Source of the DNA: a virus | Lineage: Duplodnaviria; Heunggongvirae; Uroviricota; Caudoviricetes | DNA length: 64,000 nt | Reading direction: 5' to 3' (one strand) | IMG/VR virus record: IMGVR_UViG_2880378312_000006 | In this document: in pieces, positions 2-48,636 of the stretch | Layout: every line of letters starts with the position of its first letter | Numbering within the stretch: the stretch's first letter is position 1 | Program-made: the position numbers and the translations under genes | Notes under the pieces: generated by a model | The model's database searches: none | Seen by the model: the letters and a program-made list of their open reading frames with translations, nothing else | Told to the model about the DNA's origin: nothing

Positions 2-988
2 GTGGAAGAGGTGGCGCGTCACGCTGAGGAGGCGAAGAAGAATGCCGGAGAGGCGGAGACGTCAGCGAGGAATGCCGGCATATCAGCCAGTCAGGCAGAA
101 GAGAGCGCTGCAAATGCTGACACTTCAGCAGGGGATGCATCGGAGTCAGCCCGGCAGGCGGCAGAAAGTGCAGCCGCTGCAAAGCAGTCAGAGGAGGCGT
201 CCTCGTCCTCGGCCTCTGCGGCCGCTCAAAAAGCCAGTGAGTCATTACAAAGTGCAACAGATGCTGAGTTGTCAAAAAAGACGGCAGAAAGTGCAGCCGG
301 TAATGCAGCCAGGGATGCAACGACCGCAGCAGAAAAAGCCCGGGAGTCAGCAGAAAGCGCACAGTCAGCGGAACAAAGCAGGATAGCGGCGGAAGAAGCC
401 GTAAACCGAATCCCCACCGTGGTGGGGCCTCCCGGGCCAAAGGGGGAACCGGGGCCCGCGGGTCCTCAGGGGCCGAAGGGAGATAAAGGAGAGCGTGGAG
501 ACACCGGCCCGGCAGGGGCAACCGGCGAACGGGGACCGGCAGGTGATGCTGGTCCGGCAGGCCCGCAGGGGCCGAAAGGTGACAGGGGAGAGCGGGGAGA
601 GACCGGTCTGACGGGAAATGCAGGTCCACAGGGTCCAAAGGGAGACACCGGGGCAGCAGGCCCGGCAGGCCCACAGGGACCGAAAGGAGAAACAGGTGCG
701 GCTGGCCCGGTGGGGGCAACCGGACCTCAGGGACCGAAGGGCGACCCGGGGGAGACACAAATCCGTTTTCGTCTGGGGCCGGCGAGCATTATTGAGACAA
801 ACAGCCATGGCTGGTTCCCGGGTACAGATGGTGCGCTCATCACCGGACTGACCTTTCTTGCCCCCAAAGATACCACACGGGTTCAGGGTTTTTTTCAGCA
901 TTTGCAGGTCAGGTTTGGTGACGGGCCGTGGCAGGATGTTAAGGGGCTTGATGAAGTGGGCAGTGATACAGGCAGAACAGGAGAATGA
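2..988 (+). CDS. Tail fibre protein, C-terminal part (5' end lies outside the window); collagen-like Gly-X-Y repeat region plus C-terminal tip domain
   Basis: ORF open from the window edge; translation contains long GPxGxxG repeat runs; about 98 percent identical to the C-terminus of the complete tail fibre at 58483-59796. Confidence 0.85.
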
Positions 989-989
989 C

Positions 990-1259
990 ATGAACATACT
1001 AAAAAAACTTATGCAGCGTCTGTGCGGGCACGGAAAGCATGATGACCGTGAAGACGGGGAGTTACTTACAGCACAACTGCGTCTGGGGCCGGCAGACATC
1101 CTGGAGTCCGATGAGAATGGTATTATTCCGGAGCAGGACAGGGTAATCACGCAGGTGGTGATACTGGATGCGGATAAAAAGCAGATACAGTGCGTGGTAA
1201 GACCGCTGCAAATCCTGCGTGCTGACGGGACGTGGGAAAATATTGGCGGGATGAAGTAA
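990..1259 (+). CDS. Small conserved protein (89 aa) immediately downstream of the tail fibre; function unknown
   Basis: ATG 1 nt after the tail fibre stop; near-identical copy at 59798-60067; followed by a hairpin plus T-run. Confidence 0.55.
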   Translation: MNILKKLMQRLCGHGKHDDREDGELLTAQLRLGPADILESDENGIIPEQDRVITQVVILDADKKQIQCVVRPLQILRADGTWENIGGMK

Positions 1260-1274
1260 CCCGACAGCTTCACA

Positions 1275-1300
1275 AAACCGGAGTCCGGCTCCGGTTTTTG
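1275..1300 (+). terminator. Intrinsic terminator (hairpin ccggag/ctccgg plus T-run) after the tail fibre operon
   Basis: GC hairpin followed by ttttt; same structure after the duplicate copy near 60085-60110. Confidence 0.5.
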
Positions 1301-1371
1301 TTGTCATGTAAGGCAGATGTTTGTTAAAGCTATTTAAGTCTGGAGTTTAAATTAAAATAGGGAGTTTTATA

Positions 1372-1946
1372 ATGCCGTTAAATTCGGAGATTAGATCAAG
1401 CTCATTTTTAATGGATTGAATGTCCTTCGAGCTCAAGTAGCATCTAGCGGTCGAGGGGAGTTTACATTAGGTAATGAGACTGTCAGCATTGTATTTAATG
1501 AAACCGATGGGCGTTTTCTATCCAGCGGCAGTAGTGGGGGATTGCTTACTGAGTTATTCCTTTATGGGTTTAATAACGGCCCTGAAGCTCTTCGCGATAG
1601 GATGCTCAGTATGCTTTCGGACTCAGGTGAAGCACAATCGCAAGAGAGTATTCAGGACAAAATATCTCAATGTAAGTTTCCTGTTAGTTCAGGAAATTTC
1701 CAGTGCCCGCCAGAGTCTATTCAGTGTCCAATTACACTAGAGAGACCCGAAGAAGGAGTGTTTGTCAAAAATTCAGATAGTTCGGCAGTATGCTGCTTAT
1801 TTGATTTTGATGCATTTTCTCGTTTAGCTAGTGAAGGCTCATATCATCCACTGACCCGAGAACCAATAACGGCATCAATGATTATAAGTCCTGATAAATG
1901 TGTTTATGATCCTATCAAGGGAAACTTCATTATAAAAGATAGTTAA
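1372..1946 (+). pseudogene. nleG: nleG-family T3SS effector gene with an N-terminal frameshift
   Basis: ATG at 1372 gives MPLNSEIRSSSFLMD then a stop at 1417; the rest (ORF 1416-1946, no ATG) matches the intact homologue at 60181-60756 in another frame, including the conserved C-terminal CPITL...HPLTREPIT region. Confidence 0.7.
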
Positions 1947-2285
1947 AATATTTTTCTCTGAGAGAGTATTGGCTGTCAGTAATTTGTAAAAAAACGCCGC
2001 AGACATCCAGAATATAAGAAGGTGTCTGTGGTTGGCAGGTTTCAGATGACTTGAAGGCGTCTTTATGTAAATGCATTTTTCTGTGGAGATGTTGTCGGAA
2101 AATATTGGATTAAAAACATAATCCAAGTCAAATAGTAAGTTTGTTTTTTTTGAGATTAGGTGTGTGTATTTAGAATTTTTATGATGTGTTTATTTTGTGG
2201 GGTATTTTAGAAAAAATATATTAATCCTTATTAATAATAGCTGCCATCCATTTCAGCTATTATTTTAAAATAAACAAGTTAAAGC

Positions 2286-3611
2286 TTAGACTCTTGTTTC
2301 TTGGATTATATCAAAGATATCAACATGATTTGATGGATTATGATGTGGTAAGCCATTGCTTTCGATATCGATTACCACATCCTCTGGATTTGGATGCCGC
2401 TGTCCAACAGGGATACCTTCTTCCATTGCGCGTATATCAGCACCTGTGGCATGTTCAATATCTGCTTTATTGGGGAAAATAGCTCCTTCTCTTGCGTGCC
2501 ACCATATACGAGGATAGTCAGTGAATCTAGCTACTTCAAACTCGGCCTTGTTTAAATCGGCAGCCCCCAGTGTCGCACCAGCCCACCATAAAATAGTGTC
2601 TGGCTTTAATCCAGGGGTATTATACTGTATGGCATGCCCTGCTGCTTGCCCAACCATTGCACCGATATGAGGACTTAACATTGGATCTGTACTAGCAAAT
2701 CTGGATACTGCAAATCCCCCTAAAGCACCAAGCGCATTTGCGGCAGCATTGGTAAGAACGGCATATTTAGTATTAGGGTTATCTAAATCCCACTTGAAAT
2801 GTGCGCCAAACTCCAGCCCTAGAGTTGCCTGTAATGGAGATGCACCATATTTAAAATCTGCTTCTCCCGGTCTGATAACCCACTCCTCCGTGTAATTTGC
2901 TTTCGGCCCATCAGGAGTAAGTGGTGTTTCTCCAACAAGCTTCCATCCATTTTCAGTTTTGACTATAGGAAGTTCTACACCATGATTACGAACCACTTGA
3001 GCTGTTAATCCAAACCATGGTATTGGGTCTTTTGGCTCGGTGGTTACCGTCGAAGTAGTGGCTGATGTTCCAGTCGATGCAATAGTCGACACTGCAGTGG
3101 TTGATATATTACTGTTGCTTAATGCATTTTTTAACGGGCCAGGAAGGTCTTTAAAATTAAAACCTATTTCATCATGCAGAGGGAATATCTGTAAAAAATA
3201 ATTACCTGATGTAGGATGAATATCTGGTTTTACAATGTTTAGCTGGACACCATATTTACCAGAGATGCCTGAAACGGAACTAGGTATCTCTAATGCCATT
3301 TGGGTAACATTGAATAAACCAAACATATCCAATGTTTTTTTTCCTATGGATCCTTCTTCAAGGTGAGGAGCTATATATTCGTCTAGCCCTGAGAGCAGAC
3401 CTTTATCTTTTATCAAGCTCAGTAGAGCTGTTGTTTCACCGCATTCCGGTGCATGTTGCTGTATATCATCTGGAATATTAACAACAAATCCAGCTTGGCA
3501 TCCTAGAGGTAATTCGGATTGCGGTATTTGTGTAGAGGGTATTTGTTCTGTTTGATGATGTTGATTGTTTTGTGAGGTGATTCCAGATTGTATGGTCGGT
3601 TGAATGTTCAT
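2286..3611 (-). CDS. nleA: T3SS effector NleA (EspI), 441 aa
   Basis: 441-aa ORF starting MNIQPTIQSGITSQ and ending in the PDZ-binding motif ETRV; matches NleA from recollection; AT-rich upstream region. Confidence 0.85.
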   Translation of the reverse strand: MNIQPTIQSGITSQNNQHHQTEQIPSTQIPQSELPLGCQAGFVVNIPDDIQQHAPECGETTALLSLIKDKGLLSGLDEYIAPHLEEGSIGKKTLDMFGLFNVTQMALEIPSSVSGISGKYGVQLNIVKPDIHPTSGNYFLQIFPLHDEIGFNFKDLPGPLKNALSNSNISTTAVSTIASTGTSATTSTVTTEPKDPIPWFGLTAQVVRNHGVELPIVKTENGWKLVGETPLTPDGPKANYTEEWVIRPGEADFKYGASPLQATLGLEFGAHFKWDLDNPNTKYAVLTNAAANALGALGGFAVSRFASTDPMLSPHIGAMVGQAAGHAIQYNTPGLKPDTILWWAGATLGAADLNKAEFEVARFTDYPRIWWHAREGAIFPNKADIEHATGADIRAMEEGIPVGQRHPNPEDVVIDIESNGLPHHNPSNHVDIFDIIQETRV

Positions 3612-4001
3612 AATAAATCCTTATTACATGTTTATATCCATTAATAATATCAATCCATTGATACTATTAGTGTCACATATCCGATGTGGACAGCTTTAAT
3701 ATATAACTGTTTGAATGCTTGATTGATGTGACTTAGATCTCAAAATTAAGTTGTTAAATTTACCAGTTTATCGCTTGAACACTTAAAATAAATTATAAAT
3801 GTTTCTGTTATTGTTTTTTATAGTTTAAATTATTGTTGGTTGTATAAGCTGATTACATTTTTACTCTAAGTGTTATAAATATTTTATACTGATATTAGTC
3901 TTATTATATATTTTTTTAATGAAAATGAGCATAAAACTAAGACATATAATGCTTGGCAGCTTTATGCTCTTCTGATTGGCTGTATGTTTGATGACAAAAA
4001 A

Positions 4002-4036
4002 TTAGCGCAAGAGGACAAAAAATCACCTTGCGCTAA
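4002..4036. repeat. Perfect 10-bp inverted repeat (ttagcgcaag ... cttgcgctaa) with a 15-nt spacer; copy 1 of a roughly 170-bp diverged repeat
   Basis: Read directly; second copy at 6007-6041 with one arm substitution that keeps T-G (RNA G-U) pairing. Confidence 0.8.
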
Positions 4037-4271
4037 TGCTCTGTCTCAGGTCACTAATCACATCTAACTCATTGATTAATTGTGACTCTAAATGTAGTGT
4101 TTTGTCGCGTTTTGCAGTCTATCATTTAATCAATTGTATAAATAACATAATGATTTTTAATGTGTTTTTGTGATTTTATCCTCCTTCTGACATGGAAGTT
4201 GTTCGTTCAAAAATCTTATTAAATATCAAGTTGTTAAATCTGGTAAGTCATTATTGGTCAAAATAAAATCA

Positions 4272-5210
4272 TTATCCGATTTCAATTTTGTCCCACTCCC
4301 GCCCGCGACTGTCCCTATAATGCGCCGCCATTGAATCAGATTTATGTCCAAGAAGACGTTGTGCAAACTTGTAGCCAATCTGGTTCCGATATAGCCTCGC
4401 GGACAGACTACGTAGTTCATGAAATGTCGGTGGGTCTCCATCAAACGAGATCCCGGATGCATTTCGCGCCTTTGTTAAATACCGTGATACTGTGGCTGGA
4501 GAAAGTGGTTCGTGATAGGTTGATGCGATTATTGTTTCACTGCTGCTGGCCTCCCTGCATTTCTGTAGTGTATCAACCAGTGAGATGTCGAGTGCGTCAA
4601 TGGTTAGAGCCAGCGGAATGGCAATTTTGGCTCCTGTTTTACTCTGTCCAATGTGAAGATGACCATCGTTTATGTCTGACCACTTCATTCTGCACAAATC
4701 GCCCACTCTCTGCCCTGTAACGACAGCTAAATCCATTGACAGCCTCAGCCAGATGGGGAGGTGCTCAGCAGCATGGTAAATAGCGACATACTCATTAGCT
4801 GTCAGCCTTGAGCGCCTTACTTCTGACTTTGCTGCACGGGTTGTTGTTACTGGATTCGTTGCCACATGCCCCTCGGCTATTGCCCCTCGAAAAACGTCAA
4901 CAAGGGTTGACCTGATTACTCTTGCGGAAACCGCTTTACCTTCTGCGACGTAGGTGTTTAGCATTGCTGCCACCTCTTTCGTTGATATGTCAGTGAGCGG
5001 TTTGTCCGGCAATTTTCTTCGAATTGCCCTGATTTTGCTGGCGTAGTCGAGTAATGTTTTCGGCTTGCTCCCCCTCTAGCTGAGGATTGTTTCATATCGA
5101 TCAAGCCACGTATGAAGAGTGATTGAGTCAGTGCCTTTAACCCTGTCCAGCAATGATTCGTGCCCACTTTCGCTGAAAAGCTCAATGTTGGTGTGAATTC
5201 TACGAGCAAT
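4272..5210 (-). pseudogene. int: Lambda-type tyrosine integrase remnant (N-terminus replaced, internal amber stop)
   Basis: 246-aa ORF aligns with lambda Int from about residue 110 to the C-terminus (EGHVATNPV...HELRSLSARLY...GHKSDSMAAHYRD); the upstream frame reads ...TLHTWLDRYETILS-stop-RGSKPK where lambda has ILASRGIKQK; similarity ends near 5210. Confidence 0.8.
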
Positions 5211-5339
5211 GAAATGCCTCGTGGAAGGATGCAGTGATGATTTTAATCCTTTTGATATTATTAGGGTACCAGATCTTACTTACAACAAAGGATCTTTACA
5301 ATGTGGATGATTAGAGGCCTGTGAGCCTGTTTAGGATTC

Positions 5340-5991
5340 TGTGTAAATGCCTTTTCTTAAAAGTGACCGTCAAGACGGTCACCAAACTCGATAATAAAGC
5401 GGCTCATTGCCATTCGCCAGTCCCTTAACGGCATTGTCCATTTCTGTGACGCGGCCTGGATTGCCAGCCACACCACTTTTTTTACTGACTCGTCCGTCGG
5501 GAACACCTTGCGTTTCCTGATGGCATGCCGGATCACACTGTTCAGCGACTCGATGGCGTTCGTTGTGTAGATCACTTTGCGGATATCTGCCGGATAAGCG
5601 AAAAACGTCGCCAAGTTAGTCCAGTTTGACAGCTAGCACCGGCTTATCTGCGGATAGCGGCAGTCCCAGGCCGCAGCAAACGCTTCCAGTGCCTGCTGGC
5701 CTGCCTCTTCTGTGGGAGGCTAATCGCTTTCAGGTCGCGAGTGACGGCTTTGTATTCCTTCCATGACACGAAGCGCATGCTGTTGCGCACCATATGCACG
5801 ATGCATAACTGGATGCGGGCCTCCGGGAATTCTTTCAGGCCATACACACAGGCGATGAGGATATCGTTCAGACCGCGGTTTTTCAGTTCAGTCAGCACAT
5901 TGAACCAGAAATTCGCCCCTTCATTTTCGGCCAGCCGCATCCCCAGGAGCTCTTTCTGACCTGCGATATTGATGCCCAGTGCTAGGAACAT
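5340..5991 (-). mobile_element. IS256-family transposase remnant (frameshifted fragments)
   Basis: ORFs 5357-5614 and 5644-5991 carry IS256-family motifs (ILGINIAGQKELLG...LCIVHMVRNS...NAIESLNSVIRHAIRKRKVFPTDESVKK...WTMPLRDW); broken reading frame, no intact ends seen. Confidence 0.7.
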
Positions 5992-6006
5992 TTTTATGAT
6001 AAAAAA

Positions 6007-6041
6007 TTAGTGCAAGAAGACAAAGAATCGCCTTGCGCTAA
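6007..6041. repeat. Copy 2 of the inverted-repeat element (ttagtgcaag ... cttgcgctaa)
   Basis: Same orientation as copy 1; surrounding 170 bp about 75 percent identical to 3990-4160. Confidence 0.8.
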
Positions 6042-6275
6042 TGCTCTGAAACAGGTCACTAATATCATCTAAATAGTTGACTCATAGTGACAGCATGTGT
6101 TGTGTCTTGCAGTATTATATAGCCTATTATTTAGATTGAAGCCATCATAATCTATTGATGTTAATGGTTTTTTATTGTTTGTTGTTCGGCTTTTTATACT
6201 AATTTGAGCGAAACAAAAAGATAAAAAGTTGTTTTTCGGTAAGCGTACAGCGAGGGCCGTATTGACGGGGATGTG

Positions 6276-7814
6276 TTATTCAGCTGGCAGTGCTATGCGC
6301 CACGGAAGCAGTTCGCTGACCCGGTTGACCGGCCAGTCTGCTATGACGCCAAGCACATGGCGAAGGTAGCTTTCTGGATCCACGTCATTCAGTTTGCACG
6401 TCCCGATCAGGCTGTACAGTAGCGCTCCCCGCTCACCACCATGATCAGAGCCGAAGAACAGGAAGTTTTTACGACCCAGACTGACCGCCCGCAGGGCATT
6501 TTCAGCGATGTTGTTGTCGATTTCCACCCAGCCATCGTTCGCATAGTACGTCAGTGCCGGCCACTGGTTAAGTGCGTACGCGAACGCCTTCGCCAACTCT
6601 GAGTGTCGCGACAGGGTCTTCATCTTTTCACGCAACCAGCTTTCCAGGGATTTCAACAACGGTTTCGTTTTTCGCTGACGTTCAGCAAGCCGCTGCTCTG
6701 CCGGCATTCCCCTTATATCCGCCTCTATGGCGTACAACTGACCGATCTGCTCCAGGGCTTCTTCCGTCAGTGCTGACGGGATGCGGACGTGCACATCGTG
6801 GATCTTTCGGCGGGCATGAGCCCAGCAGGCAGCTTCCGTTATCCCACCATTGCGATACAGCTCGTTGAACCCGGCGTACGCATCCGCTTGCAGCACACCG
6901 CTGAAGCAGGCAAGATGAGTCTGCGGATGGATGCCTTTTCTGTCCGGGCTGTAAGCGAACCACACTGCAGGTGCCAACGCTGACCCTGCATTGCGGTCAT
7001 CACGAACATACGCCCACAACCGCCCGGTCTTCGTCTTCTTATTACCCGGCAGCAGTACCTGGACCGGGGTATCATCGGCATGGAGTTTGCCGTCAGTCAT
7101 GACATAGCCATGAAGCGCCTCTTCCAGCGGAGACAGCAGCCGGCAGCATGCATCCACCCAGCCCGACAGCAGTGAACGCCTCAGCTCCACACCTTGCCGG
7201 CCGTATATTTCTGACTGGCGATACAGCGGGGTGTGCTCTGCATACTTCGAGGTCAGCACGCGGGCCAGCAGCCCCGGTCCGGCGATACCCCGCTCGATGG
7301 GCCGCGAAGGTGCAGGTGCCTGCACGATGGCATCGCACTGAGTACAGGCATGTTTTTCCCGTACCGTCCGGATAACCCGGAAGGCGCTACGCATCAACTC
7401 CAGCTGTTCGGCGGTATCCTCGCCCAGATAGCTCAGTGAACCGCCGCAGTTCGGGCAGCACGGCGCCGCAGGCAACAGTCGCTTTTCGTCACGGGGTAGT
7501 GATTCAGGGAACGGCTTACGGGTGCGGGTCTGACGCAACGGACGCTGTACTGCCGGGTCATACACCCTACCAGTCAGCGTATCGCTCTCTTTCTGAAGCC
7601 GGTTCAGATCGGCTTCCATTTGTGCGATACGGCGGGAGACTTTTTCGGAACGACTGCCGAAGTTCATCCGGCGGAGTTTATCCAGCTGCGCCTGCAGATG
7701 GTCTATTTCGCGCTCCCGGTTGCTCAGCTTTTCCTGCAGGGCGTGGATCAGCGCTTCCTGTTCGGCCAGGCGCTGTTTCAGCAGGAAGATGTCGTCAGAA
7801 GAGATGTCGTTCAT
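6276..7814 (-). CDS. tnpC: IS66-family transposase (TnpC), 512 aa
   Basis: Full-length ORF with coiled-coil N-terminus and zinc-finger-like CPNCG motif, inside the IS. Confidence 0.85.
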
Positions 7815-7863
7815 AAGCCCGTATTTTACCGGGCTTATTCTGTGACAACCAGGATAAAGAGAT

Positions 7864-8211
7864 TTACAGCATGGTCAGGGAGGTCAGCAGCCGCTTAGGC
7901 TGTCGCCAGTCGATACCTTCCAGCAGCATCGCCAGCTGCGCCTGCGTAAGGAACACTTTGCCATCACGGGCTGACGGCCAGGCGAAGCGCCCACGCTCCA
8001 GCCGTTTGGTCAGGAGGCACAGTCCGTCACCGGTGGACCACAGCAGTTTAACCTGACTGCCGCTGCGGCCCCGGAAAATGAAAACATGGCCGGACATGGG
8101 ATCGTCTTTCAGCGCCGTTTGTACTTTCGCAGCCAGGCCGTTGAAGCCATTTCTCATATCGGTGATACCGGCAACCAGCCAAATTTTGGTCCCGGAAGGT
8201 AACGGGATCAT
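7864..8211 (-). CDS. tnpB: IS66 Orf2 (TnpB), 115 aa
   Basis: Conserved IS66 Orf2 size and position; overlaps the upstream gene by 4 nt. Confidence 0.8.
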
Positions 8212-8609
8212 CGCTTCAGTTCCTGTATCAGCAGAGTCAGGAGCTTTTCGCTGACATTGCCATTGAAGCGGAGCGTCCCGTGCCGGAACGTTACCTCACA
8301 GCTGATACTGAGGGTTTCCGGGTCCTCTGCGAGCGATTCTGGCTGTTCGGCAGCTGCATCGAGAGTCACAGGAAGTAGCTGGGGGCTCTCTGAAGAAGGT
8401 AATAGCAGCTTTCCCTCGCGCCATTGTTGTCGCCATTTGAACAACAGATTGGCGTTAATGCCATTTTCAAGAGCAAGTTTTGAGATGGATATCCCGGGTT
8501 CACAGGAGGCAGCAACGAGCTGCTGTTTAAATTCGGGAGGATAATTAGGGCAGCCTTTTCGCCTGCCGGGAGTCACATTTTTCTGCATATCTGATACTTT
8601 GGTTCCCAC
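8208..8609 (-). CDS. tnpA: IS66 Orf1 (TnpA), 133 aa
   Basis: First gene of the IS66 three-ORF set. Confidence 0.8.
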   Translation of the reverse strand: MGTKVSDMQKNVTPGRRKGCPNYPPEFKQQLVAASCEPGISISKLALENGINANLLFKWRQQWREGKLLLPSSESPQLLPVTLDAAAEQPESLAEDPETLSISCEVTFRHGTLRFNGNVSEKLLTLLIQELKR

Positions 8610-8892
8610 TACTTATTTGGTGGACACCACTTTGTCTAATTCGTCAGATTCTGACCAGACGGTTCAGGCTGTACGCTTACGTTTTTCGTGTCTTTAAGTG
8701 ATACCAGATGGTATTGCGCTAAATGTACCAATGGGTATACCAAGAGCACTAAAAACAAAGGGGCAACCACTTTGTAACCCCTTGATTATTTGCAGAAGCG
8801 CAGAAAATCGAACTCTGGAACCCTTTCGGGGCATCCTTTTTCAAGAATGAAGAAAAAAATAACTAAAAAATCAAGTTGTTAGGAAGTTATTC

Positions 8893-9162
8893 ATGGCTAG
8901 TGTACCAACTCTTTTCTGGGCTAATAGCTATGATTTGTTTGTATTATTTGTCTCTGTCTCTATTATTTTTGACATCCATGCGACTTCTGATATTGATAAC
9001 CTCAGTTGTGGAGTTCTGTCTGCGCTTCCGGGAGGACGCATATCAAAACTACAGGATCTTCTGTTAAACACTGTAAAGCCATCTACATTGCATGTTGTTG
9101 AGTCTAAGATACAATTTTTAGTAGATGATTTATCTGCTATAGGCCTAGATATTTCAGGTTGA
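8893..9162 (+). CDS. Hypothetical small protein (89 aa) in an AT-rich region next to ISEc8; possible effector-gene fragment
   Basis: ORF with aggaag RBS-like sequence upstream; no recognisable family. Confidence 0.25.
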   Translation: MASVPTLFWANSYDLFVLFVSVSIIFDIHATSDIDNLSCGVLSALPGGRISKLQDLLLNTVKPSTLHVVESKIQFLVDDLSAIGLDISG

Positions 9163-9419
9163 TGCCAAGTGTGTCCTGAAAAAATACTTTTTATTGAAAA
9201 TGGCATTTTTATCCTCACATTATGTCTTTCTCTTATAGTGCAATTTAATGTATTTAGAAACATTAAACTATGAATCTAAAAAGGCTACGCAGAGTACTGT
9301 TACACTTTAACAAATCATATTTACCACTCTGGAAATGGGATGGCTGGTTCATAAAATAATGAGTCTTTTTCAACGGTTGTTACATTGGTGTACTGATGAT
9401 TATGCCTTGTCGCTAAGAG

Positions 9420-9680
9420 CTACCATAACCGTACAGCGTGATTCATCCATGGCGAATAAATCGACTGATAAATCCCCCTGAGTTTCAGCTCTTGCTGTTG
9501 GACCTTGCCCGTTTCGCTATGGAACGCGTACCAGCTAGAGAATATTATTCGTTCTCCTCCAATGTTACGCAAGTTTTGTAAACGGTAACCAATCGTGATT
9601 AGTCCTGCATGTAACGGACATCAAGCTGTCTGGTTGATTTTTATTGCCAGTAGTTCGAGAGAGCAGACAACTGCGTCCGA
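9420..9680 (-). mobile_element. Internally deleted IS630-family remnant
   Basis: Segments match the ends of the larger IS630-like remnant at about 11700-12650 (for example 9600-9670 versus 12240-12310). Confidence 0.4.
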
Positions 9681-9916
9681 TGGAAAAATGGGCACGACAG
9701 GGTATTCAGGCAACCTCGCTGAGGAGGCTTATGGTACAGATTGTAATGTGAAGTATAAAACGTTAAAAATTCCATTTTAGAAACTAAATAGCTGTAATAT
9801 AAGTTCGATCTAATCTACTATTTTGACAGACAGATTGTATCAAGAATTAGGGAGTATGAAATAGATGGCAATAACTAGTAAAATTAATTTTGCAACATTT
9901 AAATCGAACCATACAG

Positions 9917-10564
9917 TCAAATTCTAGTGCATATATTTTGTGTGGCTAATATGCAAAAATATTGTTCTATTAGATTAAAATGGCATTCATCTTTGCTGAC
10001 AATCATTTCCGGAACAAAGGGTTCACGGCTGAGAGGGTGTGGAGCGTTGCGTCGGATAAGTTCAGTGAGTGCATTGTGGTCATATAATGAACATATTTCT
10101 GAGTTTTTTGCATTTCTGACAAAAACACCAGTTTCAGGAATGCATAATGTTATCGGGCAATTCAGGTGTTGTTCATGACAGGAAAAGTCTTGATGACTAA
10201 CAGTAAATGCATGAGAGTTAATTTTGTTTTGTATTGCACTACTGACGTTTTGGCGCGTACATGGGGTTGCACGGCTCTGTTCCATATATAAACGGAATGC
10301 CTGCAAAAAAGTATGGCCTCTGTTAAGCTGTATCTCCAGATTTTCTGCGAGAAGGCGATGCCCTCTTGCACTAAGGCGATCCAACAGTCCGCCGGAAACC
10401 GGTTCCACGCTAAAACTGTCCATAAATGAAATATGATGAAGTCTCATAGTGCGGCCTCTCACAACAAGCTGTTCACTCTGACTAACTCTTCCGACATGAC
10501 GTAAAGCCTCCAGTTCACTTTCAGACAATACTCTTTCACTCGAAAAGTTTAATATGACAGGCAT
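9917..10564 (-). CDS. nleG: NleG-family T3SS effector (U-box E3 ligase family), 215 aa
   Basis: Conserved C-terminal block CPITLCIPETGVFVRN...HPLSREPF shared with the other NleG paralogues in the window. Confidence 0.75.
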   Translation of the reverse strand: MPVILNFSSERVLSESELEALRHVGRVSQSEQLVVRGRTMRLHHISFMDSFSVEPVSGGLLDRLSARGHRLLAENLEIQLNRGHTFLQAFRLYMEQSRATPCTRQNVSSAIQNKINSHAFTVSHQDFSCHEQHLNCPITLCIPETGVFVRNAKNSEICSLYDHNALTELIRRNAPHPLSREPFVPEMIVSKDECHFNLIEQYFCILATQNICTRI

Positions 10565-10747
10565 ATTTTCTCCCTCTTTAGTCTATGTTATTGAACCATA
10601 TTGGTGACAGGAGTCAAGATACTAAATATGTGATAGGATTCAAACAAAAAATTAAATTTTGAACGAATGCTATTTACACATGTATTTTTTTAATTAAAAT
10701 GATTGTATACAATTTTTGTAAGCAAATTTTAATGAAAAGGATTTGTT

Positions 10748-26440: not shown

Positions 26441-26730
26441 CCTGGCCTGAAGCATTCACAACGGTAGGAATTGCGATGGCGGTGGCGCTGGTGGTGTATT
26501 CGATTTGCCGCTGGGGATAAAAACGGTTTGCGGGAAAAGGATAGTTAAGTAGAATTGCTGCGGGTGCTTGAGGCTATCTGCCTCGGGCATGAACACCAAC
26601 GGCAGATAGAGAAAAGCCCCAGTTAACATTACGCGTCCTGCAAGACGCTTAACATTAATCTGAGGCTCAATCCATGCTGAACACATGTAGGTTAGCCTCT
26701 TACGTGCCGAAAGGCAAGGAGAAGCAGGCT

Positions 26731-26886
26731 ATGAAGCAGCAAAAGGCGATGTTAATCGCCCTGATCGTCATCTGTTTAACCGTCATAGTGACGGCACTGG
26801 TAACGAGGAAAGACCTCTGCGAGGTGCGAATCCGAACCGGTCAGACGGAGGTCGCTGTCTTCGTAGACTACGAATCTGAGAAGTAA
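26731..26886 (+). CDS. hokD: Hok/Gef-family type I toxin, HokD-like, 51 aa
   Basis: MKQQKAMLIALIVICLTVIVTALVTRKDLCEVRIRTGQTEVAVF... matches K-12 HokD (RelF) as I recall it; overlapping mok-like frame from 26674; upstream inverted repeat ggctatctgcc/ggcagatagag and a downstream GC hairpin typical of hok mRNA. Confidence 0.85.
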   Translation: MKQQKAMLIALIVICLTVIVTALVTRKDLCEVRIRTGQTEVAVFVDYESEK

Positions 26887-28807: not shown

Positions 28808-29113
28808 ATGCGTATAGAGTTTGTTTTGCCTTACCCGCCGACGGTGAACACCTACTGGCGACGTCGTGGCAGCACATATTTTGTATCAAAAGCCGGTGAG
28901 CGTTATCGCCGGGATGTGGCACTTATTGTTCGCCAGCAGCGGCTGAAATTAAACCTGTCCGGAAGGCTGGCGATAAAGATTATTGCAGAGCCACCGGATA
29001 AGCGCCGTCGTGACCTGGACAATATCCTGAAAGCACCACTGGATGCGCTGACGCATGCCGGACTTCTCATAGACGACGAGCAGTTTGATGAAATCAATAT
29101 TGTGCGCGGCTAG
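28808..29113 (+). CDS. rusA: RusA-family Holliday junction resolvase, 101 aa
   Basis: MRIEFVLPYPPTVNTYW...RRRDLDNILKAPLDALTHAGLLIDD matches RusA motifs. Confidence 0.8.
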   Translation: MRIEFVLPYPPTVNTYWRRRGSTYFVSKAGERYRRDVALIVRQQRLKLNLSGRLAIKIIAEPPDKRRRDLDNILKAPLDALTHAGLLIDDEQFDEINIVRG

Positions 29114-31029: not shown

Positions 31030-31105
31030 GGCCCTTTAGCTCAGTGGTGAGAGCGAGCGACTCATAATCGCCAGGTCGCTGGTTCAAATCCAGCAAGGGC
31101 CACCA
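31030..31105 (+). tRNA. ileZ: tRNA with CAU anticodon, ileX/ileZ-like (tRNA-Ile lysidine type, or Met), 76 nt
   Basis: Cloverleaf folded by hand: 7-bp acceptor stem ggccctt/aagggcc, anticodon loop cuCAUaa, T-loop ggttcaaatcc, 3' CCA; near-identical to E. coli ileX from recollection. Confidence 0.85.
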
Positions 31106-31205
31106 TCACAAACCGCCATTAGCTTATCAGGAAGAGCAGACGACACCATAACAGGGTTGTTGGTGCGGGGCCGGGTCCCCGATGGCGGTCCATTATCGGT
31201 ATTCT

Positions 31206-31282
31206 GCGTTGTTAGCTCAGCCGGACAGAGCAATTGCCTTCTAAGCAATCGGTCAGTGGTTCGACTCCACTACAACGCGCCA
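31206..31282 (+). tRNA. argO: tRNA-Arg (anticodon UCU), 77 nt
   Basis: 7-bp acceptor stem gcgttgt/acaacgc, anticodon stem attgc/gcaat with loop cuUCUaa, T-arm agtgg-ttcgact-ccact, CCA end. Confidence 0.85.
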
Positions 31283-32047: not shown

Positions 32048-32360
32048 TTTTTTTGTTTGCTGTTTATTAAAAACACTTCTGCATGGTGAATCCCCCTGTG
32101 CGGAGGGGCGATCAGCAACCAGGTATATGGGATAATCGCGGATTCAGGTGCTGATACTGAATTCACCGGGAGGCACCCGGCACCATGCTTTGCCACAAAA
32201 GTGTTGTTTCTGTTTTTCTCAAACTATCATCGTTATCCCTTTATTTCCGGCTGCGCATGGCGCGGCTTTTTTTTACGACCAGCCACTGGCAGATGGTCAT
32301 CCTGTGATTTGATTCCGGTTCCGGCTTTTTAACTCTGTTCCTGTACACGGGAGAAATTCG

Positions 32361-35265: not shown

Positions 35266-35799
35266 ATGAACGCAAAAATCAGATACGGCCTGTCGGCTGC
35301 CGTTCTGGCGCTGATTGGTGCAGGGGCGTCTGCGCCTGAAATCCTCGACCAGTTTCTGGATGAAAAGGAAGGTAACCACACCACAGCATACCGTGATGGT
35401 GCGGGTATCTGGACCATCTGCCGTGGAGCCACCCGGGGGGATGGTAAGCCTGTTATTCCTGGCATGAAGCTGTCGAAGGAAAAATGCGACCGGGTTAACG
35501 CCATTGAGCGTGATAAGGCGCTGGCATGGGTGGAGAAAAACATCAGAGTGCCGCTGACCGAACCCCAGAAAGCGGGGATCGCGTCATTCTGTCCGTACAA
35601 CATTGGCCCCGGTAAGTGTTTCCCGTCGACGTTTTACAGACGGATTAATGCAGGAGATCGAAAAGGTGCCTGCGAAGCGATTCGCTGGTGGATTAAGGAC
35701 GGTGGCAGGGACTGCCGTATTCGCTCAAATAACTGTTACGGTCAGGTATCCCGTCGTGACCAGGAGAGCGCGCTGGCGTGCTGGGGAATCGACAGATAA
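35266..35799 (+). CDS. R: SAR endolysin (lysozyme, phage 21 R-type), 177 aa
   Basis: N-terminal signal-anchor-release segment (YGLSAAVLALIGAGASAPEIL) followed by a lysozyme-type domain. Confidence 0.85.
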   Translation: MNAKIRYGLSAAVLALIGAGASAPEILDQFLDEKEGNHTTAYRDGAGIWTICRGATRGDGKPVIPGMKLSKEKCDRVNAIERDKALAWVEKNIRVPLTEPQKAGIASFCPYNIGPGKCFPSTFYRRINAGDRKGACEAIRWWIKDGGRDCRIRSNNCYGQVSRRDQESALACWGIDR

Positions 35800-36069: not shown

Positions 36070-36639
36070 ATGAATATGATGGCCGTGCCGTTTCACGGCA
36101 ACTCTCTTTATGTAGTTAACCATAATGGCGAACCATACGTTCCCATGAAACCTGTCGTTGCGGGGATGGGGCTGGCCTGGCAATCACAGTTGGCTAAGTT
36201 AAGACAGCGTTTTGCGTCAACTATAACGGAAATCGTTATGGTTGCTGAGGATGGGAAACAACGCAATATGGTGTCCATGCCACTTCGAAAACTTGCCGGC
36301 TGGCTACAAACCATTAATCCCAACAAAGTAAAACCCGAAATCCGCGATAAGGTCATCCGGTATCAGGAAGAGTGCGACGATGTTCTTTACGAGTACTGGA
36401 CGAAGGGTTTTGTCGTTAATCCCCGTAAAATGAGCGTGATGGAAGAACTCAACCAGGCTTGTGCTGACATGAAACGGGATAAAAACATTGCCAGTGTGTT
36501 TGCTACCGGGCTGAATGAGTGGAAACAGGTTAAAGCCGCGCATGTATCAAAAATCCGTACGCTGGTAAATGAAGCGAATATGCTGATTGATTTTGTCCTG
36601 GCTGATACAGGCAAAGGGAAAATAACAAAGGCGGATTGA
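36070..36639 (+). CDS. ant: Phage antirepressor-like protein (AntA/Bro-N-type N-terminal domain), 189 aa
   Basis: N-terminal AVPFHGNSLYVVNHNGEPYVPMKPVVAGMGLAW pattern typical of phage antirepressors; located between R and Rz. Confidence 0.6.
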   Translation: MNMMAVPFHGNSLYVVNHNGEPYVPMKPVVAGMGLAWQSQLAKLRQRFASTITEIVMVAEDGKQRNMVSMPLRKLAGWLQTINPNKVKPEIRDKVIRYQEECDDVLYEYWTKGFVVNPRKMSVMEELNQACADMKRDKNIASVFATGLNEWKQVKAAHVSKIRTLVNEANMLIDFVLADTGKGKITKAD

Positions 36640-36781
36640 TGGGGTGGCTAATGATATCAGATAAACTCATAACGCTGGTGAAGAGCCTCTGTGTACTTGT
36701 CGGCATTTCATTTTCACTAATGCTGGTTGCTCTTTTTCTTTCCATGGCCTGGATGGCGTTGACTTCGGCAGGGCTGGTGGG

Positions 36782-37255
36782 GTGAGCATAAACCGAATGC
36801 TTTCCGCGTTTACCGTTATTCTGCTGGTGGTCTGTGGTGCGCTTAGTCTGGGGCTGAATCATTACCGCGATAACGCCATAACCTACAAAGAGCAGCGCGA
36901 TAAAAAAGTCAGTGAGCTGGAGCTGGCAAATGCAACCATTACTGATATGCAGCAGCGCCAGCGTGATGTTGCTGCACTTGATGCCAGATACTCGAGGGAA
37001 TTAGCTGATGCGAGAGCTGAAAATGAAACTCTGCGTGCTGATGTTGCCGCTGGTCGTAAGCGCCTGCGCATCAACGCCAACTGTCCAGGCTCCTTGCGTA
37101 AAGCCCCCATCACCTCCGGCGTGGATAATGCAACCGGTCCCCGACTGGCAGAAGCCGCTGAACGGGATTATTTCATCCTCAGAGAACGGCTGATGGCAAT
37201 GCAGAAGCAACTGGAAGGAGCACAGGAATATATCCGTACCCAGTGTATACCGTGA
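36782..37255 (+). CDS. Rz: Spanin inner-membrane subunit Rz, 157 aa
   Basis: High similarity to lambda Rz (NHYRDNAITYK...DVAAGRKRL...ERDYFILRERL). Confidence 0.9.
   Translation: MSINRMLSAFTVILLVVCGALSLGLNHYRDNAITYKEQRDKKVSELELANATITDMQQRQRDVAALDARYSRELADARAENETLRADVAAGRKRLRINANCPGSLRKAPITSGVDNATGPRLAEAAERDYFILRERLMAMQKQLEGAQEYIRTQCIP
37008..37193 (+). CDS. Rz1: Spanin outer-membrane lipoprotein Rz1, embedded in Rz in the +1 frame, 61 aa
   Basis: Lipobox LVVSAC; proline-rich; matches lambda Rz1 (CVKPP.PPAWIMQP.PDWQ.PLNGIIS). Confidence 0.85.
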   Translation: MRELKMKLCVLMLPLVVSACASTPTVQAPCVKPPSPPAWIMQPVPDWQKPLNGIISSSENG

Positions 37256-37718
37256 TGTTTTGTTACGAAGGTGTTACTGGTAACGTTAAGGTAATTTAAC
37301 AAAGAGTCAGTTCCGGACTTTATAGTGTGCTCAGTTCATGGCCAAAAACGATTTCTGTGATAAATATTTTGAATATTATTTACAGGTAAATGGAGTGGGG
37401 CACATGGATAGAAATATTACAATAGAGTATGAAGTATATGCCCGTATTGTATGGGCAGAGAAGGCAAAAACATGGTAATTCCGTGTGTTGCCATGATACC
37501 TGATTGGCAGAATTGTTGTTTGGTTTTGAGTATATAGTCAGCGTCTTTTGTTCGGTAATTGCTCTTTCAATTAAAATGCCAGATATGATTTGCTTTTCTT
37601 TGTTGTTTAGTTTTTTTGTATATTATTTTTATTGTTTTTATATAATTAGTTTTTTATTGTTGTCTTATTAAGGACGGTAAATTCAGGATGGCAGTCTGTA
37701 GATAAACGGAGGTTACTT

Positions 37719-38033
37719 ATGCTACATGATCACCTGGCAGAATGTCTGGAGAAAAAAGGACTGTACCGGAGAGCAGCTGAACGATGGGCAAAAGTGATGG
37801 TACAGCTAAGTGATGACCAGAAAAGAAAAGTGGCGGCACAGAAACGAGCAGAGTGTTTGCGTAAGGCGCGCCGGACTCCGGTTTCACCGGTGAACCTGAC
37901 CGAAATAAAACAAGCGGTCAACAGACTACATTCTGAGTTGGGAATGGGATTTGAAGAGCGGCGGGTATTCCGACGATATAAAGGGACAGGAGAACAGAAT
38001 ACGTCCGGAAACGCGCGGTCAAAAAAATGCTAA
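37719..38033 (+). CDS. pch: PerC-family transcriptional regulator (Pch-like), 104 aa
   Basis: Size and N-terminal motif (LAECLEKKGLYRRAAERWAKVM) resemble PerC/Pch; located between the lysis cassette and cos. Confidence 0.65.
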   Translation: MLHDHLAECLEKKGLYRRAAERWAKVMVQLSDDQKRKVAAQKRAECLRKARRTPVSPVNLTEIKQAVNRLHSELGMGFEERRVFRRYKGTGEQNTSGNARSKKC

Positions 38034-38114
38034 AAAATATCTGAGAGCGTTATTGCCTGTTACCATAAGAAAAAGCGACTTTAGTGGTCGCTTTTTGTGT
38101 CATATATAAGTCGT

Positions 38115-38339
38115 TTAAGTAAACCTGTCTGAACAGGTTCTCTGGTCGTGTTTGTCTTTGTTGGGTACAAATTGAGAATATTTTTCATTAATTAATCTTC
38201 TTCTGCAGGCTTCAATAACCCACGCTGAAAAATTTCCTGAACCTTTCAGATCAAGAGCGATGTTAATTTGTTCAATCATCTGGTTTGGAAATCGGATGTT
38301 GCGGGTTGTTGTTCTGCGGGTTCTGTTCTTTGATGACAT
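38115..38339 (-). CDS. Small basic protein with ribbon-helix-helix-like signature (74 aa), opposite strand to the flanking late genes
   Basis: RNIRFPNQMIEQINIALD...NFSAWVIEACRRRL resembles a beta-strand plus two helices (Arc/CopG-like). Confidence 0.4.
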   Translation of the reverse strand: MSSKNRTRRTTTRNIRFPNQMIEQINIALDLKGSGNFSAWVIEACRRRLINEKYSQFVPNKDKHDQRTCSDRFT

Positions 38340-38537
38340 AATGTTGCCCCATATTCAGTGTTGCTGATTTGTATTATCTGAAGTTGCTTTTACGTTAATT
38401 TGATGCAGATCAATTAATACGATACCTGCGTCATAATTGATTATTTGACGTGGTTTGATGGCGTAGATGCACGTTGTGACATGTAGATGATAATTATTAT
38501 CATTTTGCGGGTCCTTTCCGGCGATCCGACCGGTTAC

Positions 38538-38549
38538 GGGGCGGCGACC
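38538..38549 (+). other. cos: cosN: lambda 12-nt cohesive end GGGCGGCGACCT
   Basis: 38531-38580 reads cggttacGGGGCGGCGACCTcgcgggttttcgctatttatgaaaattttccgg, matching the lambda cos sequence; lies 176 bp upstream of Nu1. Confidence 0.9.
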
Positions 38550-38646
38550 TCGCGGGTTTTCGCTATTTATGAAAATTTTCCGGGGAAAATCATGTCGGTA
38601 CTTCTCGAACATAACTATTTGTTTTTTCTAATATCGAATCCGTAAA

Positions 38647-38701
38647 GGTCCGACATGAAAACGCCTGAAAAAGTCATTTTCGGGCACTTTCATGTCGGAC
38701 C
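38647..38701. repeat. 14-bp perfect inverted repeat (ggtccgacatgaaa / tttcatgtcggacc) between cosN and Nu1, with a third CATGTCGG copy at 38591; candidate cosB (terminase small subunit binding) elements
   Basis: Read directly. Confidence 0.6.
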
Positions 38702-38725
38702 CTGTATTTGTTGTGAGACTGTTTC

Positions 38726-39245
38726 ATGAAGGTTAATAAAAAGAAACTTGCCGAAATTTTCAACGTGGATCCGCGAACGATTGAACGCTGGCAGTCTCAG
38801 GGGCTCCCTTGCGTCTCCGGAGGTGGTAAGGGCGTTGAATCTGTATTTGATACCGCCACGGCAATTCAGTGGTATGCGCAGAGGGAAGCTGATATCGAAA
38901 ATGAAAAACTCCGTAAAGAGGTTGAGGATTACAGGGCTGCCAGCGAGGCAGATCTCCAGCCTGGGACTATTGAGTACGAACGCCATCGACTTACGCGTGC
39001 GCAGGCTGACGCCCAGGAGCTGAAGAATGCCAGAGACTCCGCAGAAGTGGTGGAAACCGCATTCTGTACTTTCGTGCTGTCACGGATCGCAGGTGAAATT
39101 GCCAGTATTCTTGACGGGATCCCTCTCTCAGTACAGCGGCGTTTTCCGGAACTGGAAAACCGACATGTTGATTTCCTGAAACGGGATATCATCAAAGCCA
39201 TGAACAAAGCAGCCGCGCTGGATGAACTGATACCGGGGTTGCTGA

Positions 39246-39271
<26 letters not shown>
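38726..39271 (+). CDS. nu1: Terminase small subunit Nu1, 181 aa
   Basis: C-terminal two thirds nearly identical to lambda Nu1; N-terminal DNA-binding region diverged. Confidence 0.95.
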
Positions 39272-47447: not shown

Positions 47448-48200
47448 ATGGCAACACCAAATCCCCTTGAGCCGGTAAAAGGTGCCGGTACCACTCTGTG
47501 GGTTTACAACGGCAAGGGTGATGCTTATGCAAACCCGTTGTCAGACGATGACTGGCAGCGACTGGCTAAGGTGAAGGATCTGACGCCGGGCGAGATGACG
47601 GCAGAACCCTACGATGATAACTACCTGGATGATGAAGACGCGGACTGGACCGCGACCGGGCAGGGGCAGAAGTCTGCAGGAGATACCAGTTTTACGCTGG
47701 CCTGGAAACCGGGAGAAGAAGGTCAGAAAGGGCTTATAGGCTGGTTTGAAAGCGGGGATGTGCGGGCCTATAAAATCCGTTTCCCAAATGGCACGGTGGA
47801 TGTGTTCCGTGGCTGGGTCAGCAGTATCGGTAAGGCCGTGACGGCGAAAGAAGTGATCACCCGCACGGTGAAAGTCACTAACGTGGGCAAACCTTCCGTG
47901 GCGGAAGAACGCAGCGAAATTACGCCGGCCACTGCAATTAAGGTGACACCGACATCCGGTACGGTGGCAAAAGGGAAAACAACCACCCTGACTGTTTCTT
48001 TTGAGCCGGAAAGTGCAACCGACAAGACGTTCAGAGCGGTTTCCGCCGATCCGTCGAAAGCCACCATTAGTGTGAAAGATATGACAATTACGGTAAACGG
48101 CGTGGCGACAGGTAAGGTGCAGATCCCTGTGGTGAGCGGAAATGGTCAGTTCGCCGCAGTGGCTGAAGTCACCGTTACTGAAGCGGGCGCTGCAGGGTAA
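47448..48200 (+). CDS. V: Major tail tube protein gpV, 250 aa
   Basis: Lambda order and size; C-terminal Ig-like region. Confidence 0.9.
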
Positions 48201-48213
48201 ACGGAGGTAATAC

Positions 48214-48636
48214 ATGTTTCTGAAAACAGAACAATTTGAATATAACGGTGTGTCCGTCACGCTTTCCGAATTGTCTGCGCTGCAGCGGTTTGATTATATA
48301 AAGTTTGTTTCAGACGCAGAACAACAGGAGACAACGAAGCATGATGTCGTGCACATTAACCAGCGATATCTGGAAACGGCATCCCTGCTTGTGGCGATGT
48401 CGCTATGGCATTCCCATTCCCTCAAAGGCACTCTGGCCTCTCCGGAGACAGAGATGCAGCAGATCCGCCGTGAAGTGATGCTGGGATGGCCTGCTGATGC
48501 ACTGAATCAGGCAACGAACCGGGTGCTTTATCTTTCAGGTATGCTGGATAACCGGCACGATGCCGATCCTGAACAAACCGGTAAAGCAGAAGCGACTGAG
48601 TCGGTAACATCAAAAAAGCATTCGAAGGCGAGCTGA
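48214..48636 (+). CDS. G: Tail assembly chaperone gpG, 140 aa
   Basis: MFLKTEQFEYNGVSVTLSELSALQR... matches lambda gpG. Confidence 0.9.
   Translation: MFLKTEQFEYNGVSVTLSELSALQRFDYIKFVSDAEQQETTKHDVVHINQRYLETASLLVAMSLWHSHSLKGTLASPETEMQQIRREVMLGWPADALNQATNRVLYLSGMLDNRHDADPEQTGKAEATESVTSKKHSKAS

Follow-up and report, generated by a model that had tools for sequence, protein, structure and literature searches.

A pch gene and a putative small regulator gene of the YlcI/YnfO family beside cos in an Sp11-type prophage of Escherichia coli O157:H7

We analyzed a 64,000-nt stretch of DNA (IMG/VR virus record IMGVR_UViG_2880378312_000006, hereafter the window) and concentrated on a segment in which two small genes converge between the lysis cassette and the cos site of a lambdoid prophage. 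The window is DNA of Escherichia coli O157:H7, and the segment lies within a prophage that is 99.2–99.7% identical to Sakai Sp11. On the plus strand, an ATG-initiated open reading frame (ORF) of 104 aa at 37719–38033 is a group-1 allele of pch, with a protein identical to Sakai PchB (ECs_2182). On the minus strand, an ATG-initiated ORF of 74 aa at 38115–38339 belongs to the ylcI/ynfO family (DUF3950) and is called ylcI below. Because both ORFs have strong family matches and the 1421 bp around them are 100% identical in many O157:H7 chromosomes, neither is a chance reading frame. Judged by its match to Sakai, the segment is the pchB locus of an Sp11-type prophage.

Between the stop codons of the two genes lies a hairpin, AAAAAGCGAC-N7-GTCGCTTTTT, at 38070–38096; it is a perfect inverted repeat of 10 nt (I8) and has runs of A and T. 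On the other side of ylcI, a 199-bp spacer (38340–38538) separates its start codon from cosN, the 12-nt lambda-type cohesive end GGGCGGCGACCT, read from the sequence at 38539–38550 on the plus strand. From the start codon of ylcI it is 200 bp to cosN and 386 bp to nu1, the terminase small subunit gene (38726–39271, plus strand; Phage_Nu1 PF07471, E=4.4e-91; RefSeq ‘terminase small subunit’), from which ylcI diverges across cos. An initial annotation of this DNA had described a PerC/Pch-family gene followed immediately, on the opposite strand, by a 74-aa basic protein. Every element was found where that annotation had placed it, and its reading was essentially right: the pch gene does not match the inactive pch variants best, and the reverse-strand ORF is conserved in related prophages.

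The pch gene and its leader

The pch ORF is preceded by a Shine–Dalgarno sequence, GGAGG, 7 nt upstream of the ATG. Its product matches the Pfam family PerC (PF06069) with E=5.4e-44 and 148.8 bits (gathering cut-off 22.6) over profile positions 1–89 of 90, and RefSeq names it ‘PerC family transcriptional regulator’. The five annotated Sakai pch genes were aligned to the window protein. PchB (ECs_2182, Sp11) is 100% identical to it, and PchA (ECs_1091, Sp4; L6V) and PchC (ECs_2737, Sp14; V59M) are each 99% identical, whereas PchD (ECs_1388, SpLE1) and PchE (ECs_1588, Sp7) reach only 30% and 40%. In the comparison with pchABC and pchDE that the initial annotation had suggested, the best matches are thus the active alleles. 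Given complete identity to PchB, a distance of one residue from PchA and PchC and only 30–40% identity to PchD and PchE, the gene is pchB, an active and already characterized group-1 allele.

Group-1 pch genes are necessary for ler and espA to be fully expressed and for adherence, unlike pchD and pchE, whose products have little effect on the LEE (locus of enterocyte effacement); plasmid-borne pchA, pchB and pchC each gave phenotypes (PMC6265319). At the LEE1 promoter, Pch lowers binding of H-NS, StpA, Hha and YdgT (PMC4764244). The proposal that Pch-family genes can activate the LEE via Ler is supported by these publications on group-1 Pch and LEE1/ler activation (PMC6265319; PMC4764244). Activation of LEE1/ler through relief of silencing by the H-NS complex is known for proteins identical to the one encoded here and, by that identity, would be expected of the window copy.

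Of 5426 complete E. coli genomes, 669 contain pch at an identity of at least 99%, and the median copy number is 3. Its leader in the window (37480–37718, plus strand) is AT-rich, with a dip to 26% GC at 37550–37699, and contains the AT-rich direct repeats D1 and D4; a promoter scan called no sigma-70 consensus in this interval on either strand. We presume that the leader comprises the pch promoter and a target of silencing, and the 26% GC upstream of pch fits a silenced, horizontally acquired promoter.

The YlcI/YnfO-family gene beside cos

The reverse-strand protein contains 15 K/R and 7 D/E residues (net charge about +8), with the basic residues concentrated in the N-terminal arm KNRTRRTTTRN. 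It matches Pfam DUF3950 (PF13132; E=1.8e-18, 66.6 bits, cut-off 25), NCBIfam YlcI_YnfO_N (NF041551; 34.6 bits, cut-off 30) and phrog_949 (E=1.7e-31), a PHROG entry of unknown function, and carries the RefSeq name ‘YlcI/YnfO family protein’. The family is small and makes up 106 clusters (50% identity) out of 1.8 billion representatives. Homologues with 28–50% identity, found in Providencia, Proteus, Rouxiella and elsewhere, preserve the pattern [KR]-x-I-R-F-P-x-x-L-I-E-x-I ... N-F-S-A-W-V-x-E-A-C, of which the conserved NFS motif occupies residues 36–38 of the window protein.

Within Sakai, the copy beside pchB in Sp11 is 100% identical to window YlcI and the copy beside pchC in Sp14 is 93% identical; Sp8, which has no pch, encodes a copy with 92% identity over the N-terminal 53 residues. 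Beside pchA in Sp4, only the last 27 codons are left, cut exactly at the end of IS629. The pchA segment of Sp4 is also inverted relative to the rest of the late region, and cosN lies 3.2 kb away. In K-12, ylcI of DLP12 diverges from nohD and ynfO of Qin from nohA, in both cases across a 389-bp gap. Phage lambda itself has a 64-aa DUF3950 ORF on the minus strand at 48109–48303, 200 bp from the right cohesive end (NC_001416). This ORF is not a feature of NC_001416 or J02459, and the Prokaryotic Genome Annotation Pipeline names the homologue in some lambda-like records. The divergent order ylcI–cos–nu1 is common to the window, Sp11, Sp14, DLP12, Qin and lambda; we treat divergence from the small terminase gene across cos as an empirical feature of the family, derived from these comparisons, and not as a formal criterion. 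The cosN 12-mer GGGCGGCGACCT adjoins ylcI in the compared loci L001, L002, L006 and L007. Among 5426 complete E. coli genomes, 4620 contain DNA homologous to ylcI. The reverse-strand ORF, whose status had been made to depend on conservation in related prophages, is conserved in Sp11, Sp14, Sp8, DLP12, Qin and lambda, and by these comparisons the YlcI/YnfO family is the standard left-hand neighbor of cos in lambda-like phages, lambda included.

Dozens of European Nucleotide Archive (ENA) contigs of ~3.5 kb contain lambda-type YlcI with frameshift-like variants, and lambda-type YlcI also occurs in records labeled Staphylococcus aureus and ‘Campylobacter phage CJLB-4’ (MW057783.1, 48.4 kb). Such records have the appearance of error-prone reads or of lambda control DNA contaminating public databases, and the curated YlcI alignment left out both the ENA contigs and the records with S. 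aureus and Campylobacter phage labels.

Across the first 49 ylcI codons, the window and lambda differ by Sd=15 synonymous and Nd=4 non-synonymous changes (dN/dS=0.05, dS=0.69), clear evidence that ylcI is a real gene under purifying selection. Residues 1–49 are near-invariant among copies, while residues 50–74 are lineage-specific, with unrelated tails. DNA homology to lambda starts at window position 38205, within ylcI, and the tail seen in the window is common to the pchC-linked copy of Sp14 and the IS-truncated, pchA-linked copy of Sp4. Homology to lambda from 38205 onward and a tail that travels with pch show that the pch insert replaced cargo of the bor/ybcV/ybcW type, as carried by lambda, DLP12 and Sp8, through a recombination joint within ylcI at about codon 45–49 that gave the gene its new C-terminal tail.

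In an RNA fold of 38030–38120, the hairpin at 38070–38096 was the only stable element. A terminator scan did not call it, probably as its T run is absorbed into the stem; it is likely to act as a bidirectional intrinsic terminator for the two convergent genes. On the cos side, the window aligns to the right end of lambda up to base 38538. The 199-bp spacer differs from lambda at 17 of 199 positions, compared with ~45% of synonymous sites over the 49 ylcI codons (dS=0.69), and is nearly invariant across six lambdoid elements. This conservation beyond the level of ylcI synonymous sites points to strong constraint on the spacer at the DNA level, well beyond the short cosQ. By homology to lambda, the spacer must hold cosQ, and the ylcI promoter presumably lies there as well. 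A scan for inverted repeats revealed one at 38409–38441 and an AT palindrome at 38486–38501, both (nearly) invariant in the six elements. The sigma-70 scan near ylcI returned only a plus-strand match, GTGACA-16-TATCAT at 38476–38503, and the count was below shuffle expectation. Of the operator repeats that the initial annotation had proposed to look for, conserved repeats are thus present, but they include no convincing operator and no motif shared with the satellite copies described below.

The same annotation had noted a ribbon-helix-helix (RHH)-like pattern in the protein. Its conserved core combines the basic arm KNRTRRTTTRN with a short stretch, IRF(P), that resembles a strand, and with a pair of helices connected through a G-x-G-N-F-S turn (GSGNFS). 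An AlphaFold2 (AF2) monomer model built from a 30-sequence alignment has an extended segment at residues 1–18, a helix at 19–32 and a second helix at 37–55, with a predicted local distance difference test (pLDDT) score of 81–88 over residues 21–50 and a mean of 69.5. Foldseek searches with this model gave a single PDB match, 2k5j (E=9.8), the RHH protein YiiF, and a structure search of BFVD gave nothing significant. In a profile search of PDB sequences, the CopG RHH protein 9kkd ranked third (E=0.45) and aligned in register. With hhalign, NIRFP of YlcI falls on NLRWP, NFRMP and ITLS of Arc, Mnt and CopG, which is the expected register and not significant; the best result was Arc (P=0.0036, probability 9%). 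Pfam RHH_6 matched one of 30 family members with E=0.092. Neither Pfam nor the PDB profile search nor hhalign produced significant similarity of YlcI to a known RHH family. The suggested RHH-like pattern thus stands as a resemblance in register, from hhalign and the PDB profile search, and as an extended–helix–helix order in the AF2 model, but not as significant similarity; with all methods pointing in the same direction and none significant, we consider an RHH fold plausible.

More distant family members occur in satellite elements with an integrase, an AlpA-like gene, a primase and, in some, a capsid gene. Here, the DUF3950 gene is antisense to all else and diverges from the main replication/packaging operon across 146–194 bp, a repressor-like placement. 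An E. coli satellite beside the truncated terS of an HK97-like prophage contains two antisense DUF3950 genes (L011 5590–5772 and 6001–6363; also in L012 and L013), and the neighboring HK97-like prophage has a DUF3950 gene divergent from its HNH–terS genes. One protein of this satellite, P0213 (120 aa; in 43 blocks of the collection index), fuses DUF3950 to the N-terminal helix-turn-helix (HTH) of the Terminase_2 small terminase (E=1.6e-11), and P0193 is a related fusion of DUF3950 and Terminase_2 HTH (E=1.7e-06). Satellites of Proteus, Providencia and Pasteurella likewise have an antisense DUF3950 ORF divergent from the replication operon (L014 6001–6183; L019 5001–5183; L020 4853–5011). In Rouxiella sp., a 59-aa homologue with 53–57% identity to the window protein (L018 5001–5180) lies in a non-phage chromosomal context, directly after genes for cytochrome bd oxidase subunits. 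These distant contexts speak for DNA binding connected with the start of an operon, with which a packaging-linked function is also compatible.

Two of the Proteus, Providencia and Pasteurella DUF3950 ORFs overlap a larger ORF called on the opposite strand, and one member of each overlapping pair is probably a miscall. A ‘transcriptional repressor’ label in Pasteurella was rejected as support for the role of YlcI, as it belongs to the larger opposite-strand ORF under the tblastn match.

The surrounding prophage

The left neighbors of the pch–ylcI segment form the lysis cassette, with a lysozyme gene at 35266–35799 (ORF list and family search) and Rz at 36782–37255 (Phage_lysis, E=1e-46). Together with cosN and nu1 on the right, they bear out the placement of the PerC/Pch gene between lysis cassette and cos. 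In a RefSeq genome identical to the window over 24.8 kb, all annotated genes of the late region, from the Q region to the tail genes, lie on the plus strand with two exceptions, the YlcI/YnfO gene and one pseudogene fragment. The YlcI/YnfO ORF is thus the sole intact minus-strand gene of the late region in that genome, as expected from its earlier description as an isolated reverse-strand gene in an otherwise unidirectional region.

An antirepressor-like gene (36070–36639, plus strand) with P22_AR_N and ORF11CD3 domains is inserted within the lysis cassette, between endolysin and Rz, and is followed directly by a 48-aa ORF at 36639–36785 (phrog_4906). Between Rz and pch, a 46-aa plus-strand ORF at 37338–37478 matches phrog_2157 over its full length (E=1.1e-37); the identical RefSeq genome carries no annotation for it, and it is probably a real small phage gene. 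Rfam detected no RNA family within 37250–38750. Elsewhere in the prophage, its gathering-score matches were the sok antitoxin RNA beside a Hok/Gef gene, the small RNA STnc100, DicF and two tRNAs, with matched segments at 26562–26736, 32052–32224, 19301–19352 and 31030–31279, all outside the pch–ylcI segment. The multicopy prophage small RNA HnrS was ruled out at this locus, as its published placement is in Sp9, Sp10 and Sp12 and not in Sp11.

On a larger scale, window positions 28933–64000 (~35 kb) correspond to Sakai Sp11 with 99.2–99.7% identity as far as ydfJ. Positions 608–14751 correspond to the right end of Sakai prophage Sp9, with nleA, nleG and espM1 up to the ompW′ fragment; relative to Sakai Sp9, ~1.7 kb with nleH1-2 and nleF is absent at 5198/5199. 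In the window, the Sp9-type prophage ends on the right with the ompW′ fragment, directly followed by the integrase of the Sp11-type prophage (12600–14800), whereas in Sakai ompW′ is followed by yciE, which indicates a tandem or rearranged junction. The left prophage end of Sp11 abuts Sp12 in Sakai, in contrast to the Sp9-type ompW′ junction of the window.

Possible roles of YlcI and comparison with known systems

We read the locus as two independent, convergent small genes. They occupy the place for accessory genes that an Sp11-type lambdoid prophage has between its lysis cassette and cos. The plus-strand gene is pchB, which encodes a group-1 anti-silencer; a leader very rich in AT precedes it, and the lysogen presumably expresses it from the prophage. 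On the opposite strand, ylcI would be transcribed from the spacer near cos, in antisense to the late operon, and its product is most likely a small local regulator acting on the conserved spacer or on the divergent packaging operon. The identities of the two genes, their geometry, their conservation and the purifying selection on ylcI are observed. For YlcI, we infer an RHH fold, DNA binding, a target and the timing of expression, and picture a minimal Arc/CopG-like RHH dimer that would bind DNA; a small Arc/CopG-like DNA-binding regulator near cos is our best guess for its role. Overall, a known pchB next to a YlcI/YnfO backbone gene encoding a putative Arc/CopG-like local regulator near cos has, in our estimate, a probability of roughly 80%. 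No evidence for a functional pairing of the two genes was found among the compared elements: lambda, DLP12, Qin and Sp8 have ylcI and no pch, and pchA is kept in Sp4, where ylcI is truncated. Cargo and backbone respectively, the two are unrelated and have a terminator-like hairpin in common.

Several points weigh against this interpretation. For pch, the activity ascribed to the window copy derives from sequence identity. For ylcI, packaging signals alone may account for the extreme conservation of the spacer, the sigma-70 scan called no minus-strand promoter upstream of the gene, and the regions upstream of phage and satellite DUF3950 genes have no operator motif in common. The AF2 monomer is of moderate confidence and contains no beta strand, which would be expected if the strand forms only in the dimer. 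The searched literature contained no expression data for the ORF; in a Sakai RIBOseq paper on small genes and its supplements, no match was found by coordinate, sequence or name, where coordinate versions may differ.

Alternative explanations of either gene were weighed against the same evidence. It is very unlikely that the window pch is a silent or inactive duplicate and the locus without regulatory consequence. With a median of three near-identical copies in O157 genomes, a single copy may be redundant, and the AT-rich leader suggests silencing; yet the ORF is intact, has a good Shine–Dalgarno sequence and encodes a protein identical to PchB, and pchA, pchB and pchC were each phenotypic when plasmid-borne (PMC6265319). 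Could the 74-aa ORF be no gene at all, open only because packaging keeps the DNA around cos conserved? Conservation of the neighboring 199 non-coding bp exceeds even that of the ORF, no promoter was found and the lambda reference record leaves the ORF unannotated, but the 15 synonymous and 4 non-synonymous changes relative to lambda (dN/dS=0.05) make this highly improbable. The residue pattern is, moreover, kept in homologues of 28–50% identity from Providencia, Proteus, Rouxiella, Pasteurella and satellites, some of them without a lambda-type cosN within the fetched flanks, and curated Pfam, NCBIfam and PHROG families exist. That YlcI is the antitoxin of a toxin–antitoxin pair is scarcely credible and is effectively refuted by the gene layout. 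The partner toxin that the initial annotation had suggested looking for did not materialize: neither the ORF list nor Pfam, NCBIfam and PADLOC revealed a co-oriented toxin partner on either side, and PADLOC gave only sub-threshold noise for defense systems. Downstream of ylcI lie the hairpin at 38070–38096 and then the convergent pch, while the sole upstream minus-strand ORF (38355–38612) spans cosN and has no Pfam, NCBIfam or PADLOC match. The gene is solitary in five other elements, including lambda, DLP12 and Qin, and, with the tails unrelated, the conserved part of the protein has no C-terminal toxin-binding extension.

A packaging accessory in place of a transcription factor is unlikely, though less so than these. 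YlcI would then bind DNA near cos or the small terminase and influence how cos is recognized or cleaved or how packaging terminates, and satellite copies would interfere with helper packaging or redirect it. The constant position of the gene beside the start of a packaging module (cos–nu1 or HNH–terS), the fusion of DUF3950 to the Terminase_2 small-terminase HTH in two protein clusters (P0213 and P0193) and the conservation of the 199-bp spacer beyond the synonymous sites of ylcI speak for such a function. Against it, lambda packaging of cosmids works with short cos fragments, so that the ORF is not essential, the Rouxiella homologue resides in a non-phage chromosome, and adjacency to cos could be hitch-hiking. 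The satellite redirecting protein Rpp, in addition, is a winged-HTH protein with no reported link to DUF3950 (PMC6739421).

The local-regulator reading of YlcI can be taken further, into a more speculative and doubtful proposal. In it, DUF3950, including the 64-aa ORF of lambda, would bind DNA in the manner of Arc/CopG and be functionally coupled to the cos/packaging module; satellites would have co-opted it as the divergent regulator of their own operon, and one lineage would have fused it to a small-terminase HTH. It might, for example, repress transcription entering nu1–A in the lysogen or act on the 199-bp spacer left of cos. If true, DUF3950 would be an overlooked component of lambda biology. 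The pch part of the locus matters for pathogenesis and is already characterized, as one of three redundant group-1 LEE-activating copies in O157:H7; nothing new emerges from it, and the region is largely ordinary and already annotated. By contrast, ylcI is among the most widespread uncharacterized genes of lambdoid phages and recurs in satellites. Should YlcI bind DNA near cos or regulate the packaging operon, the best-studied phage would gain a component; this is a lead and not a finding.

Comparison with known systems places both genes. PchA, PchB and PchC of Sakai Sp4, Sp11 and Sp14 share with the window protein the length of 104 aa and the slot between Rz and cos of a lambdoid prophage, and from PchB there is no difference at the protein level. 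PchD, PchE and PerC of the enteropathogenic E. coli (EPEC) plasmid have the PerC domain (PF06069) and invariant residues including R17, R18, W23, M27 and C46 in common with it. They differ in showing 30–40% identity, in being 89–90 aa long, in lacking the C-terminal 14-residue extension present in the window protein and in their other genomic contexts. For the reverse-strand gene, YlcI of DLP12, YnfO of Qin and the lambda ORF share DUF3950, 46 of the first 49 residues, the orientation and a distance of ~389 bp to the nu1 homologue across cos, but have an unrelated tail after residue 49. The neighbor on the other side is pch in the window versus ybcW/ybcV/bor or ydfO in lambda, DLP12 and Qin.

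Two further systems bear on function. Rpp of E. coli phage-inducible chromosomal islands is a winged-HTH protein of 144–153 aa with a coiled-coil dimerization domain (PMC6739421). It resembles the DUF3950 proteins as a small satellite protein tied to cos or the small terminase, DUF3950 genes also occurring in satellites and one of them being fused to a TerS-type HTH. Rpp is, however, not a DUF3950 protein, and homology of YlcI to Rpp was rejected on the grounds of this size and fold and of a description that does not mention DUF3950 (PMC6739421). Another likeness, at no significant level, is to the repressors Arc and Mnt of the P22 immI region and CopG, which have a similar size and a basic N-terminal arm; the putative common succession runs from a strand motif, N-[IL]-R-[FW]-P, through helix A and a G-x-S/N turn to helix B. 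Arc and Mnt differ in their setting, as ylcI has no adjacent antirepressor gene; the ant-like gene at 36070–36639 lies at a distance of 1.5 kb, and lambda, DLP12 and Qin lack it. In orientation, P22 Mnt is also transcribed against the late operon, like ylcI.

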